Below, in pieces: positions 37,375 to 45,680 of a stretch of DNA of 58,120 nt. This DNA comes from an uncultured Acidimicrobiaceae bacterium (GTDB lineage: Bacteria; Actinomycetota; Acidimicrobiia; Acidimicrobiales; Aldehydirespiratoraceae). Positions within the stretch are counted from its first letter, which is position 1; every line of letters begins with the position of its first letter. Under the pieces are notes generated by a model. The model was not told where the DNA came from, did no database searches, and worked only from the letters and a program-made list of their open reading frames with translations. The stretch lies in NCBI GenBank assembly GCA_913041415.1, contig CAJWHS010000006.1, forward strand, positions 1-58,120. Reading direction: 5' to 3'. The position numbers and the translations under genes were made by a program.

Positions 37375-37968
37375 TCAGCCCCCGATCGTCAGGCCAGCGG
37401 TCTGTCCGTCGCGCTGTTCGATGGTGATACCGGCGCCGCCGCCATTCGCCTCGCGGCGTTGGACAAGCTCGCCGGACTCGATCTTGGTGTGCAGGGTGAA
37501 GATCGAGTGCAGGAGGGTTTCCGGCCCGGGCGGGCAGCCTGGTGCGTAGACATCGACCGGCACGATCTGGTCGACGCCTTGCACGATCGCGTAGTTGTTG
37601 AACATGCCGCCGCTCGAGGCGCACACGCCCATGGAGATCACCCACTTGGGTTCCATCATCTGGTCGTAGACCTGACGGAGAACCGGAGCCATCTTCTGGC
37701 TCACCCGGCCGGCAACGATCATTAGGTCAGCCTGCCGAGGCGATGCCCGGAAGGTCTCCATGCCGTAGCGGGCGAGGTCGTAGTGGGCCGTGCCCGACGC
37801 CATCATCTCGATTGCGCAGCACGCGAGACCGAACGTGGCCGGCCAGAGGCTGCGGGACCGCGCCCAGCTGACCAGGTTCTCGACATTGCCGGTGAGGAAG
37901 TTGTGATCCATCCCCTCCAGGCCGTTGTCGGCGATCGACTGGCTTTCACCGAGCCCTGGAATCCTCAC
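37375..37968 (-). CDS. nuoB: NADH-quinone oxidoreductase subunit B (14-subunit cluster)
   Basis: [29 protein letters not shown]. Confidence 0.96.
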
Positions 37969-38435
37969 GCTGCCGTCTCCTCCGCAATCGGCCGGTTCTC
38001 GAGACCGACACGGCGAATGGTGGATTCAGCGGTTCGTTCCGGCGAGACGGCGCCGGACGGGCGAGCCACCTGCTTGAGCGGGCCCCATTCGAGTGCGCCG
38101 TTGCTGATCAGGTACACGAACGACTCGAAGACGGCGAACGTAAATACCATGATCATCGCCAGGCCGAACACGCCGAGACTCCCGTAGGCCAAAGCGTACG
38201 GGTAGAAGAAGATGATCTCGATGTCGAAGACGATGAAGATCATGGCGACCAGGAAGAACTTCACCGGGAAGCGTTCCGGGGTCTCCTTGGTCGGGACGAT
38301 GCCGCACTCATACGCAGCTCGCTTGGCGTACGTCGGGTTGCGCGGGGCCAGGAGGCCCGATGCGATGAAGCTGCCGGCGGCGAAGAGCACCGCTAGCCCA
38401 AACAGCATCAGCAGGGGCAGGTACTGGCCGAGCAT
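37965..38435 (-). CDS. nuoA: NADH-quinone oxidoreductase subunit A (14-subunit cluster)
   Basis: [23 protein letters not shown]. Confidence 0.95.
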
Positions 38436-38438
38436 GGG

Positions 38439-39578
38439 TTACGCCGCCTTTTCGAACTCAGCTCGCCGAGCCATGACGACCTTGTCGCGTTCGTGGAGCA
38501 TGTAACACAGCGACAAGAAGATGAGTAGCGAACCGATGGTGAAGAACGCCGGCACCTGACGCAGGTTGCCCAGGTTGCGGATCATCACGACCGAGACGAT
38601 CGGCTCGTCTTGGTCGACCACCGGGATAAGCGGAGCGTTACCCGGCAGGTTGGTCAACGACTCCTCCGTGACCTGCTGCACCTGGATGATGCCGTAGCGG
38701 GTCGGGTGGCTGATCTGCGCAGTCTGGCGGATCCTGGTCCAGACCCGGTCGAGGACGTTCGGGTCATCGGGCAGGCCTTCCTTGCCGCCGATGGTGTAGG
38801 CGTCAAGGAGCTTGAACTGGCTCTGGTCGGCGAAGGAGAAATCGTCGGACTCGAGCAGCATGGCGATGGCCGAGGCCTGCGCCTCGCCCGCTTCGGCGGT
38901 GGACAGAAGTGTCCAGCCTCCGAGGTTCGCATTGTCAGGATCAATCAGACCGGGGGTGACTGCAGCGAGTTCGGACCAGGTGGTCGCCTCGTTGCGACTC
39001 TGCTCTGCGGCGACGAGTGCGTCGATCTTCGCCAGCGACAGGCCCTCGACCTGGTCGGGCGTGAGGCGCTCAGCGACGACGATGCCGAATTCCGCGTCGG
39101 CAATCTGGATCTCGACGAGACGATCGGCAGCGTCATTGCTGAGGCCGGCCGAATCCATAGTTCGCCAGTCGGCGCCGAACTCGGCCTCGGCAGCCTCGGC
39201 AGCCGCAACGACCGCCTCATGCGCCGACGGCAGAGATTCGGTGCGAAGCAGGTTGGCCTCGTCGAGCGCGGCGAAGGTCAGGTGGCCTTCCGTCTCGGTG
39301 CCCTCGACGATCTCGACTTCGTCCCATACCGGGCCGTCACCAGCCCAACCGATGCCATAGAGCCACCAGATCGAACCCATAATGGTCAACCAGGCAAAGA
39401 GGCCCGCCAGGGACAGCAGGGTGCCGAGGCGGACGCCGTTGTTGCTGGACACGATGATCCAGACGGAGCCCATCCAGACACAGAAGCCCGCGAAGACCGC
39501 AAGGAAGCCGCGGACATGGGGATCCCACTCAAGCCCGTCGATCCAGTCGAGGACGCCGATCAGTTCGACCATTTCCAT
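38439..39578 (-). CDS. hypothetical membrane protein linking the cytochrome bc and nuo genes
   Basis: 2 N-terminal TMs, large acidic domain, 1 C-terminal TM; ATG overlaps the cytochrome c stop; ends 3 bp before nuoA. Confidence 0.8.
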   Translation of the reverse strand: MEMVELIGVLDWIDGLEWDPHVRGFLAVFAGFCVWMGSVWIIVSSNNGVRLGTLLSLAGLFAWLTIMGSIWWLYGIGWAGDGPVWDEVEIVEGTETEGHLTFAALDEANLLRTESLPSAHEAVVAAAEAAEAEFGADWRTMDSAGLSNDAADRLVEIQIADAEFGIVVAERLTPDQVEGLSLAKIDALVAAEQSRNEATTWSELAAVTPGLIDPDNANLGGWTLLSTAEAGEAQASAIAMLLESDDFSFADQSQFKLLDAYTIGGKEGLPDDPNVLDRVWTRIRQTAQISHPTRYGIIQVQQVTEESLTNLPGNAPLIPVVDQDEPIVSVVMIRNLGNLRQVPAFFTIGSLLIFLSLCYMLHERDKVVMARRAEFEKAA

Positions 39579-41071
39579 CAAAGAGTCCTCTCAAACGCCA
39601 CGATGGCATCGATCTGCTCGTCGGTGAGCAGGGCCGGATACTCGAAGACGATGCCGGAGCCGGGGCCCATACCTGGGCCCACCGGATTGGCTTCCGTCAG
39701 TGCGCCGAAGCCAGGCATCTGGCCGTTGCCGCCCGAACCACCACGACCGTAAGTCTGACCGATGGCTTGGCCTCGCGTGATGAAGGCCGACTGGCCGATG
39801 GCGGTCTCGAACTGCGAAAGGGTTGAGCCGCCGGTCAGGTTGGGGCCGAAGAAGCCACCGGCAGTGACGTACCCGTCGGCGAGCTCGGGAATCGGACCGT
39901 CGCGGCCGTTCTCCTCGAGCACATAGTCGGATGCGCCGTCGAAGCTCCAGCCATAGGTGTGGCAGCGGGCGCAGCTGTACGTGCCGGCGGCCGCCGTGTT
40001 GCTGAAGAGGATCTCGCCCCACTGGAGGTACGCCTCCTGACCCTCGAACGCATCGAGGGTCGAAAGAATTTCGAGCGCAGCGGCTCGGAGGTCGTCCTCA
40101 TTGCCCTCATCGGCGAGCGACGGGTCGGCCTCGATCACAAGGGCATCGGCCGTGGCCTTCGCCGCCGAGACCTGATCGAACCAGGTGGACACCGCCGCAT
40201 CAAGCGGTTCGACCGCAGCCTCGTTCGCTGCGGTGAGACGGGCGTTGGCCTCGTCGAGTGCCAGGCACTCGCTGGCGTCGTCGGAGCACTCGAAGTCGAA
40301 GTCGGCCCGACCGAGCAACCGAACGGCCATGGCGGCGTCGGCCTGGGCGGCTTCCGCGGCCCGGACCTCGACCGCCCACGCCTCATCGCTGGTCTCGAGG
40401 ATCAGCGCCTTGGCACCGGCCTCGACACCACTGTCGACCTGTGAGCGGATCTCATCTTCGGAGATCTGAACGCTGCGGAGATAGAAGATGATCTCTTCGA
40501 GCTGCTGATCGGTGAGCGGACCGCCGCCACCGGAACCCCAGGCCGGCATGACACCGTTTCGGCCGTAGTTGAGCACGTGGAGAATCTCGTCCTCGGTGTG
40601 GCGCGACATCAGCGTGTTGAGGGCTGGCGCCTTCCAGTTGACCTGGGCCACAAACTCGCCGGACGACGAGGTGATGGCGGTGTTGACGACACCACCGGCG
40701 CCCTCAGGGCCGTGACAGTTCACGCACTGCGCACCCTCGAGATAGATCTCCTCGCCACGGTTGGTGGAGATTCGCCACGTGTCGAGATCCCGGCCTTCGT
40801 GACGCCCCGGCTCACCGAGCCAGTAAAGCGGCAAGGTGATGGCCACGATCGTCAGCAGCACCAGGCTCGAGCCAAGCGCAAGATCGAGCTTCTTGCCCTC
40901 GAGATCCTCGTCGGAGAGATACGGCTTGCGGTTCGAGGCGAGCTCAATCTCCGAGCCGACTTCGTTGCGAGCCGAGCGGATGTTGAAGTAGATGTAGACG
41001 ATCCCACCGAGGACGACGATCGCCAAGATGACGAGTCCGATGGTTCGTTGTGTGGAGGCGGCGAGCAACAT
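39578..41071 (-). CDS. membrane-anchored diheme cytochrome c (QcrC-like subunit of the Rieske/cytochrome b complex)
   Basis: CVNCH..MPAWG and CARCH..MPGFG; two N-terminal TMs. Confidence 0.88.
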   Translation of the reverse strand: MLLAASTQRTIGLVILAIVVLGGIVYIYFNIRSARNEVGSEIELASNRKPYLSDEDLEGKKLDLALGSSLVLLTIVAITLPLYWLGEPGRHEGRDLDTWRISTNRGEEIYLEGAQCVNCHGPEGAGGVVNTAITSSSGEFVAQVNWKAPALNTLMSRHTEDEILHVLNYGRNGVMPAWGSGGGGPLTDQQLEEIIFYLRSVQISEDEIRSQVDSGVEAGAKALILETSDEAWAVEVRAAEAAQADAAMAVRLLGRADFDFECSDDASECLALDEANARLTAANEAAVEPLDAAVSTWFDQVSAAKATADALVIEADPSLADEGNEDDLRAAALEILSTLDAFEGQEAYLQWGEILFSNTAAAGTYSCARCHTYGWSFDGASDYVLEENGRDGPIPELADGYVTAGGFFGPNLTGGSTLSQFETAIGQSAFITRGQAIGQTYGRGGSGGNGQMPGFGALTEANPVGPGMGPGSGIVFEYPALLTDEQIDAIVAFERTL

Positions 41072-41128: not shown

Positions 41129-42010
41129 CTAGTGCGACGACTGACCGATGCAGTTGGGGCCCTCGGCCTCCTGCCCGGTGGTGTTCGTACCGATCGGCGG
41201 GCCCTGGATGATCGTGCCGGTGTCGACGGTGAGAACACCATCAGCCGAGACGCTCATGGCGAAACGGTCCATGCCGCGTGGGGCCGGGCCACCACGCTTT
41301 TCGCCGACACGGTTGTACTGGGAACCGTGGCAGGGGCACTCGAACCACTGGGAGGTGACGCACTCGGGCACACGGCAGCCAAGGTGCGGGCACTTCTGGT
41401 AGATGGCGATGACACCACCGTCGAGCCCCAGTGCGAGACCAGCTTCCATGCCGGTGAGTTCGTTCGCCGAGTAGGCGGCACGGGCCTTCTCGACCGCACC
41501 GTTTGGGTATTCGGTGATCCACATGCGGCCGTCCGCCCGGTAGAGGAAGCCGTTGGCGCCGCGGACCTCGCTGAGCACGTCGCTCACGAGGCCGACTCGA
41601 ATGGCCGAGCCAAAGCCGCCACCGAGCTGGGGCCACAGGAAGGCGATCGACGCTAGGCCGAAGCCGCCGAGACCGATCTGCATCATGAGGATGATGGTGC
41701 GGTTGAAGAACTGGCGACGTGAGACGCCGATGACCTCGGGATCCGGCGGCACATAGGGAGCCGGCGGCGCACTCTGGCGGGCAGCGAGGACGAGTTCCTT
41801 GCTGGCGGCCTTGCGCTCGAGGACTTGGGCCCGCTCGACCTGCTTGCCCGTGAGGGCGTCCTCGTTGCCGAGAACGGTCGATTCACGGTCGCGTGCCTTG
41901 GTTTCCCGAGAGAGGATGCCGACGGCCCCGTCGGCATCGCGACTCTTGAGCGCGGAGAAAACGGCGACGGCGGCCAGCAGGGCGATGACGACGATGGCTG
42001 CAATGAGCAT
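41129..42010 (-). CDS. Rieske iron-sulfur subunit (QcrA/PetC-like)
   Basis: CPHLGC and CPCHGSQY boxes, GPAPR, internal Tat motif SRRQFF. Confidence 0.93.
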   Translation of the reverse strand: MLIAAIVVIALLAAVAVFSALKSRDADGAVGILSRETKARDRESTVLGNEDALTGKQVERAQVLERKAASKELVLAARQSAPPAPYVPPDPEVIGVSRRQFFNRTIILMMQIGLGGFGLASIAFLWPQLGGGFGSAIRVGLVSDVLSEVRGANGFLYRADGRMWITEYPNGAVEKARAAYSANELTGMEAGLALGLDGGVIAIYQKCPHLGCRVPECVTSQWFECPCHGSQYNRVGEKRGGPAPRGMDRFAMSVSADGVLTVDTGTIIQGPPIGTNTTGQEAEGPNCIGQSSH

Positions 42011-42028: not shown

Positions 42029-42808
42029 TTACAGCTCGAAGAACAAGCCGGCTTCCCACGGGAAGACGAAGTTGAATCCGGGTCCTCGGAAGAACGAGCC
42101 GATCATGGTCAGCACAGCCCAGAACATAAGGTGGACAGTCATCAACGAAACCGCGAACTTACGATCCTCGGGCTTCGCCGACGGGTTTCGGTCGATGTAG
42201 GGAATAAACATCAAGAAGAACAGGCCGATACCCGGAATGGTCACGCCGGCGACCATCGGGTGGAACACCGTGAGGAGTTCCTGCAGGCCGAGGAAGTACC
42301 ACGGGGCCTTCGACGGGTTCGGCGTCTCGTTGAAGTTGGCGAGCTCCAGCAGCGGAGCGTTGACGAAGATCGAGAAGATCAAGGTGAACGCAAGCGCAAA
42401 CAGAGCGGCGCCGAACTCGACCACGAGCAGGTGAGGCCAGGTGTGGACCTTGTCCTGCGGGACGGCCTTGACGTCTTGGATCGAGCCCGACTTCACAACG
42501 GTGAGCAGGCGCTGGGTGTGACCACCGGGCCCGGTCGGCACCGGGGCGCCCGACGCAGCAGCGGGGGCGGCTGCGGCGGGAGCCGTGGCGACGGCGGTTC
42601 CGGTGGCGGTACCGCCGGCGGCCTTCGCCTTGGCGGCCTTGGAGCGCTCGAGCAGGTGCGCCGGGATCTTCGACGCAGCCTCTTGCTGTTCGGCGCTGAG
42701 TTCCTGGGCGGGCGCCTCGGCCGGAGCGTCGGCGGCAGCCTTGGCCGCAGCGGCCTTGGCTCGGGCCTCTTCGGCCCGCTTGCGGAGGTGTTCGGGGACT
42801 TCGGTCAT
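42029..42808 (-). CDS. cytochrome b subunit IV (PetD-like C-terminal part of a split cytochrome b)
   Basis: TWPHLL, ANFNETPNPSKAPWYFLGLQ, PYID; long Ala-rich N-terminal extension. Confidence 0.88.
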   Translation of the reverse strand: MTEVPEHLRKRAEEARAKAAAAKAAADAPAEAPAQELSAEQQEAASKIPAHLLERSKAAKAKAAGGTATGTAVATAPAAAAPAAASGAPVPTGPGGHTQRLLTVVKSGSIQDVKAVPQDKVHTWPHLLVVEFGAALFALAFTLIFSIFVNAPLLELANFNETPNPSKAPWYFLGLQELLTVFHPMVAGVTIPGIGLFFLMFIPYIDRNPSAKPEDRKFAVSLMTVHLMFWAVLTMIGSFFRGPGFNFVFPWEAGLFFEL

Positions 42809-42829
42809 GTCCTTCTTCTCCTTTTTGCC

Positions 42830-43624
42830 TTAGAGCGGACCCGAGATGCCGCCGTCCTTGCGCACTCGCCAAAAGTGGATCGCCATGAAGATGACGAGCA
42901 CGAACGGCAGGAGCAAGACGTGCAACACGTACCATCGGAGCAGCGTGTCGGTGCCGATCTCCACGCCGCCGAGCAGCACGAAGCGGACTTGTTCTCCGAA
43001 CACCGGGGTGTACCCCATCATGTTGGTACCCACCGTCACCGCCCAGAGGGCCAGCTGGTCCCAGGGCAGGAGGTAGCCGGTGAACGAGAGGAGCAGGGTG
43101 AACTGCAAGAGGTTGACGCCGATCACCCAGTTGAACTCACGGGGCGCCTTGTACGCACCGTGGTAGAAGACGCGGGCCATGTGGAGGAACACCGAAAGCA
43201 CCATCAAGTGGGCTGCCCATCGATGCATGTTCCTGACCAGCAGGCCGAAGGTCACGCTGTTTTGCAGCGTGTAGATGTCGTCCCAGGCCGCCGCAGCGGT
43301 CGGCCGGTAGAAGAACATTAAAAAGATGCCGGTGACCGTCAGCAAGATGAACAGGAAGAAGGACAGACCGCCGAGGCACAGCGTGTAGCTGACCTTGACT
43401 GCGTGACGCTTCACCTTTACCGGGTGCAGGTGGTACAACACTGAGTTCATGATCACGTAGGACCGGTTTCGAGGGCTGTCGGTGTAACCCTTCCGGAAGA
43501 TCGAGCCAGGTCGGAAGATCGAGTTCCAGGCCTGAGAGGACTGGGTCGCGTCGACTAGCTGGGTTGCTTGGTCCTGCAGCCGCTGCGGCAGGGGCTTCTT
43601 CGCGTCTTCGTCAGTGTTCGCCAT
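42830..43624 (-). CDS. cytochrome b6-like subunit (PetB-like N-terminal part of a split cytochrome b)
   Basis: CLGG, HRWAAH..LHMARV, GYLLPWDQ, four heme His, ends GISGPL. Confidence 0.93.
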   Translation of the reverse strand: MANTDEDAKKPLPQRLQDQATQLVDATQSSQAWNSIFRPGSIFRKGYTDSPRNRSYVIMNSVLYHLHPVKVKRHAVKVSYTLCLGGLSFFLFILLTVTGIFLMFFYRPTAAAAWDDIYTLQNSVTFGLLVRNMHRWAAHLMVLSVFLHMARVFYHGAYKAPREFNWVIGVNLLQFTLLLSFTGYLLPWDQLALWAVTVGTNMMGYTPVFGEQVRFVLLGGVEIGTDTLLRWYVLHVLLLPFVLVIFMAIHFWRVRKDGGISGPL

Positions 43625-43656
43625 AGATCTTTGTTTCGTGTCAGGGCACTCCGGCG

Positions 43657-44073
43657 TCAGCCGAGGCGCATGCCGTATCCGTAACCGTGGGTATTCGTTC
43701 GCTGGTGGGCATCACCGTCGGCCGGCGGGTCGCCAATCTTGCCGAGGATGATCACACCCGTGGGGCACCGGTCGACGCAGAGAGCGCACCGGGTGCACAC
43801 GTCGTCGTCGATGGTGAAAATCACATTGTCGTTGGGGTCGCTGCCCGGGAGTTCCGTACCGATCGCTTCGTCGATCGCGTCGGGACGCACCATGTGGATG
43901 CACTTCCACGGGCAGATGTCAACACAGCCCTCGCACATGATGCACTCGGACTGGTCAATGTGGATGAACTGCTTCGGCTTGACCTGGGCGGTGAGCCAGG
44001 CTGCGTCGACCTGCTGGAGGATGTAGTCGTCGCGGAACTCGGGAAGCGGCGGATTCGCGTCGGTGGTCGCCAT
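43657..44073 (-). CDS. 2x[4Fe-4S] dicluster ferredoxin
   Basis: CIMCEGCVDICP and CTRCALCVDRCP. Confidence 0.9.
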   Translation of the reverse strand: MATTDANPPLPEFRDDYILQQVDAAWLTAQVKPKQFIHIDQSECIMCEGCVDICPWKCIHMVRPDAIDEAIGTELPGSDPNDNVIFTIDDDVCTRCALCVDRCPTGVIILGKIGDPPADGDAHQRTNTHGYGYGMRLG

Positions 44074-44077
44074 GAAG

Positions 44078-44527
44078 TCAGGCACCTTCCTTAACGAGCG
44101 GACGGCCGAAGGTCGAGCGTTCGGGAGTCTTCTCTGCGTTCTGCTTCTCGCCGCGCTTTTGCCAGGCGGCCCACATCCAGATGTTGCCGGCGAGCGCAAC
44201 GACATAGATGCCAACAGCGATGAGGTCGCGTAACACAACATAGTTGACACGAATTGGCGACCAGCCACCGTCCTGCTGCGACTTGAGCAGGTCAAACGGG
44301 CCGAAAAGGATCTTGTCGGAACGCCAGTTGAGCTCATTGTCGGCCCAGGACAGGAACTGGTGCGGCACGACGCCATAGACCCAGAACATCAAGAAGAAGA
44401 CGATCATTGAGCCGAGCATCGCCTCGCCCCAGGTCACGACCTGATCGGCGGGACGGCGCTTCTGGTAGGTGAGGATTCCGCCAACGATCAAGGCGGTGAC
44501 GATGATCGACGACACGAAAGCGACCAC
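44078..44527 (-). CDS. hypothetical membrane protein (3 TM), first gene of the respiratory block
   Basis: GTG start with AGGAG RBS; three hydrophobic segments; ends 4 bp before the ferredoxin. Confidence 0.8.
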   Translation of the reverse strand: MVAFVSSIIVTALIVGGILTYQKRRPADQVVTWGEAMLGSMIVFFLMFWVYGVVPHQFLSWADNELNWRSDKILFGPFDLLKSQQDGGWSPIRVNYVVLRDLIAVGIYVVALAGNIWMWAAWQKRGEKQNAEKTPERSTFGRPLVKEGA

Positions 44528-44564
44528 GCTGCGACTCCTGGAGAACGGACGCGTTTCACGAACT

Positions 44565-44582
44565 TCGTGAAACCATGCACAA
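44565..44582 (-). promoter_or_regulatory. putative Rex operator abutting a TAGACT -10 element (44587-44582)
   Basis: Minus strand TTGTGCA-TGGT-TTCACGA vs Rex consensus TTGTGAA-N4-TTCACAA; arms nearly identical to the site upstream of rex. Confidence 0.75.
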
Positions 44583-44831
44583 GTCTAAACCGGAGGCGCT
44601 GCGACCCCCGGATTGGTGCCTGGTTTATCACGATGCCTTTCGATTCCCCCCATCCGGCGCTGGGGAAAATCGGGTGTTGCGCGATTGTCCGAAATTCGGG
44701 GGGAGGATTCTGCTTCGGCTTGTTCGGACGTGCGACACTGCCCCTATCCTCAGGGGGCGTGGTCGGCGTAATCCTGCCTCTGCCGCTCCACCCGCCAGTC
44801 CGCTGTCCGATCGATCCGCCGGAGACCAACG

Positions 44832-45680
44832 GTGACCGAAGTACCTGAGCACCTCCTGAAGAAGGCCGCCGAAGCCCGTGCCCGCCTCAGTGGGCAGGCC
44901 CCAACCAACGCGGGCGATAGCGCCGCTCCGAGCAGCGAGCCGGCGGGCGAGGCCGCTCCGGTTCCGGCCACGACGGCTGCCCCGGTCCCGGCCGTCCCCG
45001 AGGAGCCCGCTGCTCCCGAGCCCGTCGCCCCCTATGTCGAGGCCGCCGAGACCCGCAAGAAGGTCCCGGTCTGGATCGTTCCGGTCCTGATTTTCCTTCC
45101 CTTCTGGGCGATTTTCTACGTCGGCTATCTCGAGAACCCGCCCGCCGCTCCCGAGGGTCTCGCCTATGAAGGTACCGAGATCTATAGCGGCCAGTGCGCC
45201 GGCTGCCAGGGTGGCGGTGGCGGTGGCGGCTCCGGCCGCCAACTCAACGGCGGCGAGGTCCTGCTCACCTTCCCGTCGCTCGCTTCAGGCGCCGCCTACG
45301 ACGGCCTCGCCGGCCACCTGCACTGGGTCGCCAACGGCACCGCCGGCTCACAGGCCGAGGGCCTTCTCGTCTACGGCGATCCCGATCGGCCCGGTGGGGC
45401 CCACGTACCCGGCTCGTACGGCCAGATGGCCGGCTTCGGCAACCTCTCGCCCGAGCAGTTGGTGGCGGTCGTCTACCACGTCCGCCACGCGTTCGGTGCC
45501 GACCAGATCACTCCGGAAGGCGACGAGAGAGAGCTCCACGTGCTCGACGAGCTCTACCACCTGATGGAAGAAGAGGGCGTCATGACCTTCGAAGGCGCCA
45601 CGCTGCCGGAGATCCAGGTCTGGGTCGACGCCGCTCGCATAAAGGTCGACGAAGAGTACGGCGAACTCGCCGCGGAGTAA
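44832..45680 (+). CDS. membrane-anchored cytochrome c-like protein with CxxCQ motif
   Basis: GGAGA RBS; one TM, then G.EIY..QCAGCQG, distal QMAGFG and LSPEQLVAVVYH class I cytochrome c pattern. Confidence 0.75.
   Translation: MTEVPEHLLKKAAEARARLSGQAPTNAGDSAAPSSEPAGEAAPVPATTAAPVPAVPEEPAAPEPVAPYVEAAETRKKVPVWIVPVLIFLPFWAIFYVGYLENPPAAPEGLAYEGTEIYSGQCAGCQGGGGGGGSGRQLNGGEVLLTFPSLASGAAYDGLAGHLHWVANGTAGSQAEGLLVYGDPDRPGGAHVPGSYGQMAGFGNLSPEQLVAVVYHVRHAFGADQITPEGDERELHVLDELYHLMEEEGVMTFEGATLPEIQVWVDAARIKVDEEYGELAAE

Follow-up and report, generated by a model that had tools for sequence, protein, structure and literature searches.

A tethered helix shared by subunit IV and a cytochrome c of Acidimicrobiia: a candidate portable docking tag of a ferredoxin-containing b6-type complex

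Why two unrelated respiratory proteins, encoded on opposite strands of the same locus, should begin with the same short peptide is the question raised by contig CAJWHS010000006.1 (58,120 nt; "the window" denotes this whole stretch of DNA), which belongs to a 2.68 Mb genome of an uncultured member of the class Acidimicrobiia. The peptide, here called the tag, occurs twice in the N-terminal extension of subunit IV, the PetD-like part of a split b6-type cytochrome b, and once at the start of a membrane-anchored cytochrome c encoded divergently from the operon of that complex. The tag is best read as a small cytoplasmic module in its short version, with one helix, attached through a disordered leash rich in Ala and Pro, and it seems moderately likely that it functions as a modular, portable protein-docking tag at the cytoplasmic face of the ferredoxin-containing b6-type complex.

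Translation places three copies of the motif in two unrelated respiratory proteins, at the positions given by the first-pass annotation of this DNA (Table 1), and a GGAG-type ribosome-binding site is found 8-11 nt 5' of the starts of both subunit IV and the divergent cytochrome c. Across the six frames of the whole 2.68 Mb genome, a strict regular expression gives four matches, three of them being the tag sites and the fourth lying inside an unrelated frame of 634 aa. A 22-column profile run against the whole genome recovers only the three tag sites, with E values of 1.9e-11 to 7.4e-10 and a next best value of 0.33, this profile having been built without the degenerate tag forms, which leaves degenerate extra copies beyond its reach. 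Subunit IV copy 1 and the cytochrome c copy are identical at 43 of 66 nt, and the codons differ at 5 of the 13 residues that are identical between them, in agreement with the initial claim that differences at silent sites reflect conservation at the protein level. The scan for the motif against background frequency, proposed at first as a check, separates the tag from background in the regular expression, the genome profile and the phylum sample described below, and the likeness among the tag copies is beyond chance.

Each tag is composed of an N-cap (Glu, Val or Ile, Pro), a hydrophobic pair, a basic helix and a Gly at its end. For subunit IV, an AlphaFold2 (AF2) model obtained from a 40-row alignment predicts helices at residues 6-25, 39-46 and 50-64, with predicted local distance difference test (pLDDT) values below 50 at residues 27-38 and 65-109, the mean pLDDT of 55.9 being low overall, so that the model supports secondary structure only. 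The predicted helices at 6-25 and 50-64 and the linkers of low pLDDT are consistent with the tethered cytoplasmic helix envisaged by the first-pass annotation, and the Ala/Pro linkers that it had described ahead of the first transmembrane helix are equally apparent, since the Ala+Pro fraction is 0.44 in residues 1-100 of subunit IV, whose three transmembrane helices lie at 127-145, 184-202 and 218-236, and 0.43 in residues 1-76 of the 282-aa cytochrome c, whose only transmembrane helix lies at residues 80-98 in a hydropathy scan and is preceded by basic residues. Linker 2 of subunit IV varies in length across the alignment, and the acidic stretch preceding copy 2 is kept. The N-terminal end of subunit IV is placed on the cytoplasmic (n) side of the membrane, as is established for PetD. 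Other orders of the class have a longer module, with a basic helix, a Gly turn and a second, acidic helix in about 32 residues, whereas in the order of the window this second acidic helix is absent and a short acidic helix precedes copy 2, as well as the tagged tails of the Nfu_N-domain proteins considered below, instead.

The motif is kept in orthologues of both proteins, as would be expected if the first-pass annotation were right. The core pattern occurs twice in 119 of 120 subunit IV homologues and once in the remaining one, and the tag is present in 106 of 120 cytochrome c homologues (N-terminal in 105 and, in one protein called from an earlier start, at residue 87), a number that rises to 108 with two more homologues in which Tyr takes the place of His, the other 12 beginning downstream of the tag position. 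Judging by sequence matches, the tag is almost confined to the class Acidimicrobiia. Of 401 phylum genomes sampled, 31 match at E ≤ 1e-3, namely the window's genome, 20 of the 22 others of its order, all eight others of its class and two of the 370 outside the class; these last two matches are weak, one being a 72-aa frame and the other an Arg-rich 374-aa frame without a gene-like look. A class-wide sample yields matches at E ≤ 1e-4 in 251 of 301 genomes and in 0 of 13 in one family, and the phylum and class genome tallies, both for the tag and for the transmembrane core of subunit IV given below, include genomes flagged as unpublished, that with the Arg-rich frame among them. Five genomes of the same order in which the motif was not found gave no match to subunit IV either; thus, the absence of the motif goes with a complex that was not found. 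The arrangement in the window, with two tagged frames on opposite strands and 2.0-2.4 kb between them, recurs in all 20 of the other tag-bearing genomes of the order. A separate contig scan for non-respiratory carriers of the tag (P0381, P0361 and others) matched the tag portion only, in metagenome-assembled genomes of Acidimicrobiia (Ilumatobacteraceae, Acidimicrobiales and similar). Among viral sequences, the tag alignment had 39 pattern matches, about the chance number by a rough estimate, none of which was confirmed.

The tag is also carried by other proteins. A search of representative proteins (1.84 billion sequences) returned 618 at E ≤ 1e-3, 73 of them at E ≤ 1e-10, and the largest number of copies in a single protein was seven. 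Among 60 of the 150 listed carriers that were compared with Pfam, four fall in the subunit IV family (one of them weakly), three in cytochrome c families and one in TIR_2, five have single marginal or probably spurious matches, and 47 have none. Many of the unassigned carriers are frameshifted or truncated subunit IV calls, and one ends in a known assembly artefact. The proteins P0304, P0306, P0321, P0326, P0338 and P0356 are frameshifted subunit IV from high-G+C metagenome contigs, with a C-terminal part that is the wrong frame of the core. P0316 (244 aa) has two tags of the subunit IV type at its start and a TIR_2 domain at its end (E 5.4e-16), on a contig that may be chimeric. P0256 and P0243, with three and seven copies, respectively, have similar four-helix transmembrane regions at their C-terminal ends, and the membrane domain of P0256 shows a weak likeness to the N-terminal transmembrane region of the unassigned 380-aa membrane protein in the window (27% over 55 residues; in a single comparison, E 1e-06). 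The C-terminal domain of P0381 had no match in a further viral scan, and a homologue search with it returned only itself.

Two of these secondary carriers belong to ferredoxin or Fe-S metabolism. In five genomes of one genus, of about 1 Mb and 36-39% G+C, the long form of the module is found on subunit IV in all five and, in four, also on the alpha subunit of a 2-oxoacid:ferredoxin oxidoreductase (Pfam POR, POR_N and PFOR_II; loci L049, L051, L052 and L056 in genomes G418, G449, G425 and G440), where it is N-terminal in two and C-terminal in two and is set between long acidic Glu/Pro/Val linkers. Within the window's order, one family has a small soluble Nfu_N-domain protein with the tag as a C-terminal tail past a disordered linker in 10 of 16 aligned orthologues. 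The AF2 model of a tagged orthologue (mean pLDDT 80.5) matches 2FFM (SAV1430; E 8.7e-05, template modelling score 0.74) and 2LTM (the N-domain of human NFU1; E 3.9e-04), and its tag helix reaches pLDDT values of 84-91, which could reflect docking back on the domain, a point on which no claim is made. With a single query at E ≤ 1e-5, the Nfu_N protein is found in 22 of the 401 phylum genomes, all of them Acidimicrobiia, and weaker full-length matches (E 0.002-0.006) occur in three more genomes of the class. The orthologue in the host genome is untagged (109 aa; C1:49243-49569, minus strand; 29.5 bits against PF08712, cut-off 27), and a prediction of its complex with subunit IV residues 1-75 gave a score of 0.00 and a mark of 0.32, values that speak neither for nor against binding.

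A sharply conserved face made up of the Pro, basic residues and the pair of Leu, a disordered leash, attachment to either terminus of unrelated proteins and one to seven copies per protein fit a portable docking module. The home of the tag would be the N-terminus of subunit IV in the ferredoxin-containing b6-type Rieske/cytochrome b complex, and copies on other proteins would bring their carriers to the same cytoplasmic-side partner; the carriers so recruited would be the cytochrome c in the window and, in relatives, the alpha subunit of the oxidoreductase and the Nfu_N-domain protein. We infer both the docking and the partner, and the cytoplasmic face of the complex is favoured for this role, with the ferredoxin placed first, because subunit IV is the universal carrier and two secondary carriers have a link to ferredoxin or Fe-S chemistry. 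Within the docking reading, the acidic 2x[4Fe-4S] ferredoxin subunit is the preferred candidate, albeit a tentative one with odds well below even and more doubtful than docking itself.

Subunit IV proteins outside the class may be relevant to this reading. Of 301 genomes of the phylum, 138 have a match to the transmembrane core of subunit IV, 118 of these being among the 279 outside the class, and nine outside-class proteins all have N-terminal extensions of 116-134 aa in which helices come first, one of them basic, followed by Ala/Pro linkers. In all five such genomes checked, the distance upstream to the ferredoxin gene, which is read from the same strand, is 1.2-1.6 kb. Hence, the ferredoxin-bearing complex seems in general to have a subunit IV with a basic helix on a tether, and only the Acidimicrobiia version was found to form one family and to have spread to other proteins. 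The subunit IV proteins at loci L210, L212-L216, L221, L223 and L224 have conserved, unnamed N-terminal helices of their own, and one family among them repeats a basic helix initiated by Pro-Glu.

Several observations weigh against the docking reading. No docking partner was identified by any analysis. The net charge of the three copies (+1, +4 and +1) is only mildly basic, and neither the cytochrome c, with its periplasmic haem, nor the TIR-domain carrier P0316 has an evident need for ferredoxin. The frameshifted and truncated subunit IV calls imply that the true range of carriers is narrower than the figure of 618 suggests and that the counts of carrier families are inflated. Moreover, the tag profile found no match in the N-termini of outside-class subunit IV, and hhalign of the tag with the N-terminal helices of other classes returned a probability of 1.2%, with no support for homology, so that the phylum-wide argument is one of architecture.

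The main rival is self-association, which we consider fairly unlikely and according to which tags would bind each other, acidic N-cap to basic body, so that any tagged protein would stick to subunit IV and proteins with many tags would cluster complexes. Copying would be the simplest way for a self-binding tag to gain affinity, and up to seven copies are present in one protein, with two on subunit IV and one on the cytochrome c. In the long form, a basic helix has an acidic partner within its own chain, and short acidic helices precede subunit IV copy 2 and the Nfu_N tail; these pairs and preceding helices suggest that helix-helix pairing is part of the design of the module. However, at E ≤ 1e-4 only one copy per genome is detected in one family, where a diverged second copy may be missed, and each tag type keeps its own sequence across genomes, with no convergence within a genome.

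It is very unlikely that the tag acts as an amphipathic helix at the membrane surface, where it would bind anionic lipids and determine localisation or curvature. Basic residues in a helix near the membrane would suit such a role, and the soluble proteins that bear the tag could be brought to the membrane by it, but the hydrophobic moment of the tag is low (0.20-0.34) and its mean hydrophobicity negative (-0.15 to -0.56), lipid binding would not call for a Pro and Leu pattern so close to invariant, and leashes of 25-100 residues would be unneeded on proteins that are already in the membrane. The position at the extreme N-terminus of two membrane proteins with long cytoplasmic tails would also be compatible with a signal for biogenesis or turnover, such as a targeting, insertion or protease-recognition tag, yet this role is highly improbable in view of tags that are internal, C-terminal on soluble proteins or arranged in arrays of up to seven, unlike a co-translational targeting signal. 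Least probable of all is ligation of a metal, as the first-pass annotation had it, or of haem by the conserved His. In favour of such ligation, the His is invariant in a 21-row alignment mostly of the window's own order, with Glu neighbours one turn off, and Tyr as a replacement could still ligate iron. Yet three subunit IV proteins of one family and one cytochrome c have Ser at this site, and three Nfu_N-protein tails have Ala, Leu or Asp, with the rest of the module kept in each case; the replacement of the His in some lineages argues against this function.

The docking reading can be extended to an address label that builds a cytoplasmic electron-input station on the b6-type complex, an extension that we regard as decidedly unlikely, more so than self-association. 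The tags of subunit IV would then hold or recruit the 2x[4Fe-4S] ferredoxin of the complex, tag copies would dock the 2-oxoacid:ferredoxin oxidoreductase and an Fe-S maturation factor at the same site, and low-potential electrons would pass to the quinone pool via the n-side haem. If true, bacteria would have an equivalent of the path from ferredoxin to b6f that has long been debated for cyclic electron flow. Bioenergetics has long asked whether, and in what way, ferredoxin-type donors dock at the inner face of complexes of the b6 type, and here an abundant and large group of marine and freshwater actinobacteria has such a complex with its own ferredoxin gene and a conserved portable tag, which in relatives is also found on a ferredoxin-reducing enzyme.

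On the minus strand of the window, the order of genes is that of the 149-aa membrane protein, ferredoxin, b6, subunit IV, Rieske protein, 497-aa cytochrome c, 380-aa membrane protein and nuoA (Table 1). Subunit IV scores 32.6 bits against PF00032 (Cytochrom_B_C; cut-off 20.7) with the b6 gene directly upstream, and belongs to this family. The ferredoxin of the operon has a net charge of -12 and is found in 57 of 61 genomes of the class at E ≤ 1e-20. Its identity is 54-80% class-wide, and an aromatic, Gly-rich C-terminal tail ending in Arg and a hydrophobic residue is kept (window and loci L167-L195). The haem motif of the 282-aa cytochrome c reads Cys-x-x-Cys-Gln (45195-45209, plus strand; Gln at 45207-45209) instead of the CxxCH present in 118 of its 120 homologues, including those that are 94% identical, and the window's own protein has no Pfam match. 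Gln and His differ here by a single base, and the site is not among the read differences listed; Cys-x-x-Cys-Gln could, therefore, be an assembly error or a strain variant unable to bind haem normally.

Table 1. Features of the bc cluster and of the divergent cytochrome c gene in the window.
Feature	Position	Strand	Basis
Tag copy 1, subunit IV residues 1-22	42743..42808	-	Translation; profile E 7.4e-10; AF2 helix 6-25
Tag copy 2, subunit IV residues 45-66	42611..42676	-	Profile E 7.0e-10; AF2 helix 50-64
Tag copy, membrane-anchored cytochrome c residues 1-22, GTG start	44832..44897	+	Profile E 1.9e-11
Subunit IV (PetD-like) gene of split b6-type cytochrome b, 259 aa	42029..42808	-	Pfam Cytochrom_B_C, E 9.9e-08
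Linker 1, Ala/Pro-rich, with short acidic helix right before copy 2	42677..42742	-	Composition; AF2 pLDDT <50 at 27-38, helix 39-46
Linker 2, Gly/Ala/Pro/Thr-rich, up to conserved segment before the transmembrane helix	42509..42610	-	AF2 pLDDT <50 at 65-109
Monohaem cytochrome c gene, 282 aa, divergent from bc operon	44832..45680	+	Homologues with Pfam cytochrome c families
Cytochrome c linker, Ala/Pro-rich, basic residues at end before transmembrane helix	44898..45068	+	Composition, sequence
Single transmembrane anchor of cytochrome c, residues 80-98	45069..45125	+	Hydropathy scan
Intergenic region between bc operon and divergent cytochrome c	44528..44831	.	Layout of open reading frames (ORFs)
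Membrane protein, 149 aa, first gene of operon	44078..44527	-	ORF; no Pfam family above cut-off
2x[4Fe-4S] ferredoxin gene of operon	43657..44076	-	Pfam Fer4 families
Cytochrome b6 gene	42830..43624	-	Pfam Cytochrome_B, E 1.4e-44
Rieske protein gene	41129..42010	-	ORF/Pfam
Cytochrome c gene, 497 aa	39578..41071	-	ORF/Pfam
Unassigned membrane protein gene, 380 aa, last of bc cluster before nuoA	38439..39581	-	ORF
nuoA	37965..38435	-	ORF/Pfam

Among read sets, the best matches to the DNA of the window come from marine and seawater metagenomes. Two metatranscriptome runs of one study contain contigs of 90-99% likeness over the subunit IV tags and over the cytochrome c from 44825 on, and give a weak hint that the tag genes are transcribed in related strains; these contigs leave positions 44604-44727 bare, where DNA runs continue. 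In an RNA-library contig of one relative, a 12-nt in-frame insertion lies behind 42610, just past copy 2, and fits a linker that is tolerant of length change. A joint that skips 102 nt in the linker was disregarded, as it is present in a single RNA contig of depth 2.9 with a side of 20 letters.

Searches with Pfam, with PF02817 and against PDB sequences name no family for the tag, in line with the first-pass annotation, which knew of no named domain. With the long form, a profile search of the PDB gave designed repeat proteins as best matches, through a generic helix-turn junction and at E 0.06 or weaker. Searches of the literature on respiratory complexes of Acidimicrobiia and on the oxidoreductase and Actinomarina, as well as of the accessible parts of PMC5600118 and PMC4122944, gave no description of the motif, the letters of which are unsearchable as such. 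From the sequence searches, the tag is an uncatalogued module present in most of the class Acidimicrobiia, and even if it were a mere structural tail it would merit a family entry.

In the cytochrome b6f complex of chloroplasts and cyanobacteria, the N-terminus of PetD is an interaction site on the stromal side. The tag resembles this system in that its carrier is a PetD-type subunit IV with the N-terminus facing the n side, whereas PetD is not known to have an extension of about 120 residues or such a helix, and the Acidimicrobiia module is duplicated and common to other proteins. In chloroplasts, the n-side face of b6f takes part in regulatory contacts, according to the accessible part of a preprint (bioRxiv 10.1101/2023.08.08.552398). 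The split cytochrome b of an Acidimicrobidae strain has been placed in the APWY clade or a neighbouring one (Kao and Hunte 2014, PMC4122944), and the carrier complex of the tag is of the same kind, although the sections of that paper available here make no mention of an N-terminal tag or a common motif. The subunit IV proteins of other Actinomycetota, encoded in the order ferredoxin-b6-subunit IV, are alike in the length of their extensions, the basic helix and the Ala/Pro linkers, but differ in sequence, and copying onto other proteins is not seen among them.

The closest functional parallel may be the peripheral subunit-binding domain (PSBD; E3_binding, PF02817) of the E2 component of 2-oxoacid dehydrogenases. 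A search of the host genome with PF02817 gave three domain matches in two genuine E2 proteins and none at the tags, and membership of the tag in this family is unsupported. The tag helix is longer and lacks a second loop-helix unit, and instead of lying between the lipoyl and catalytic domains of E2 the tag is carried by subunit IV, a cytochrome c, the oxidoreductase alpha subunit and the Nfu_N protein. Nevertheless, both are modules of about 20-35 residues with a basic helix and flexible linkers rich in Ala and Pro, and one carrier of the tag also takes part in 2-oxoacid metabolism. The tag would, by analogy, work like the PSBD, which provides a docking site for partner enzymes.

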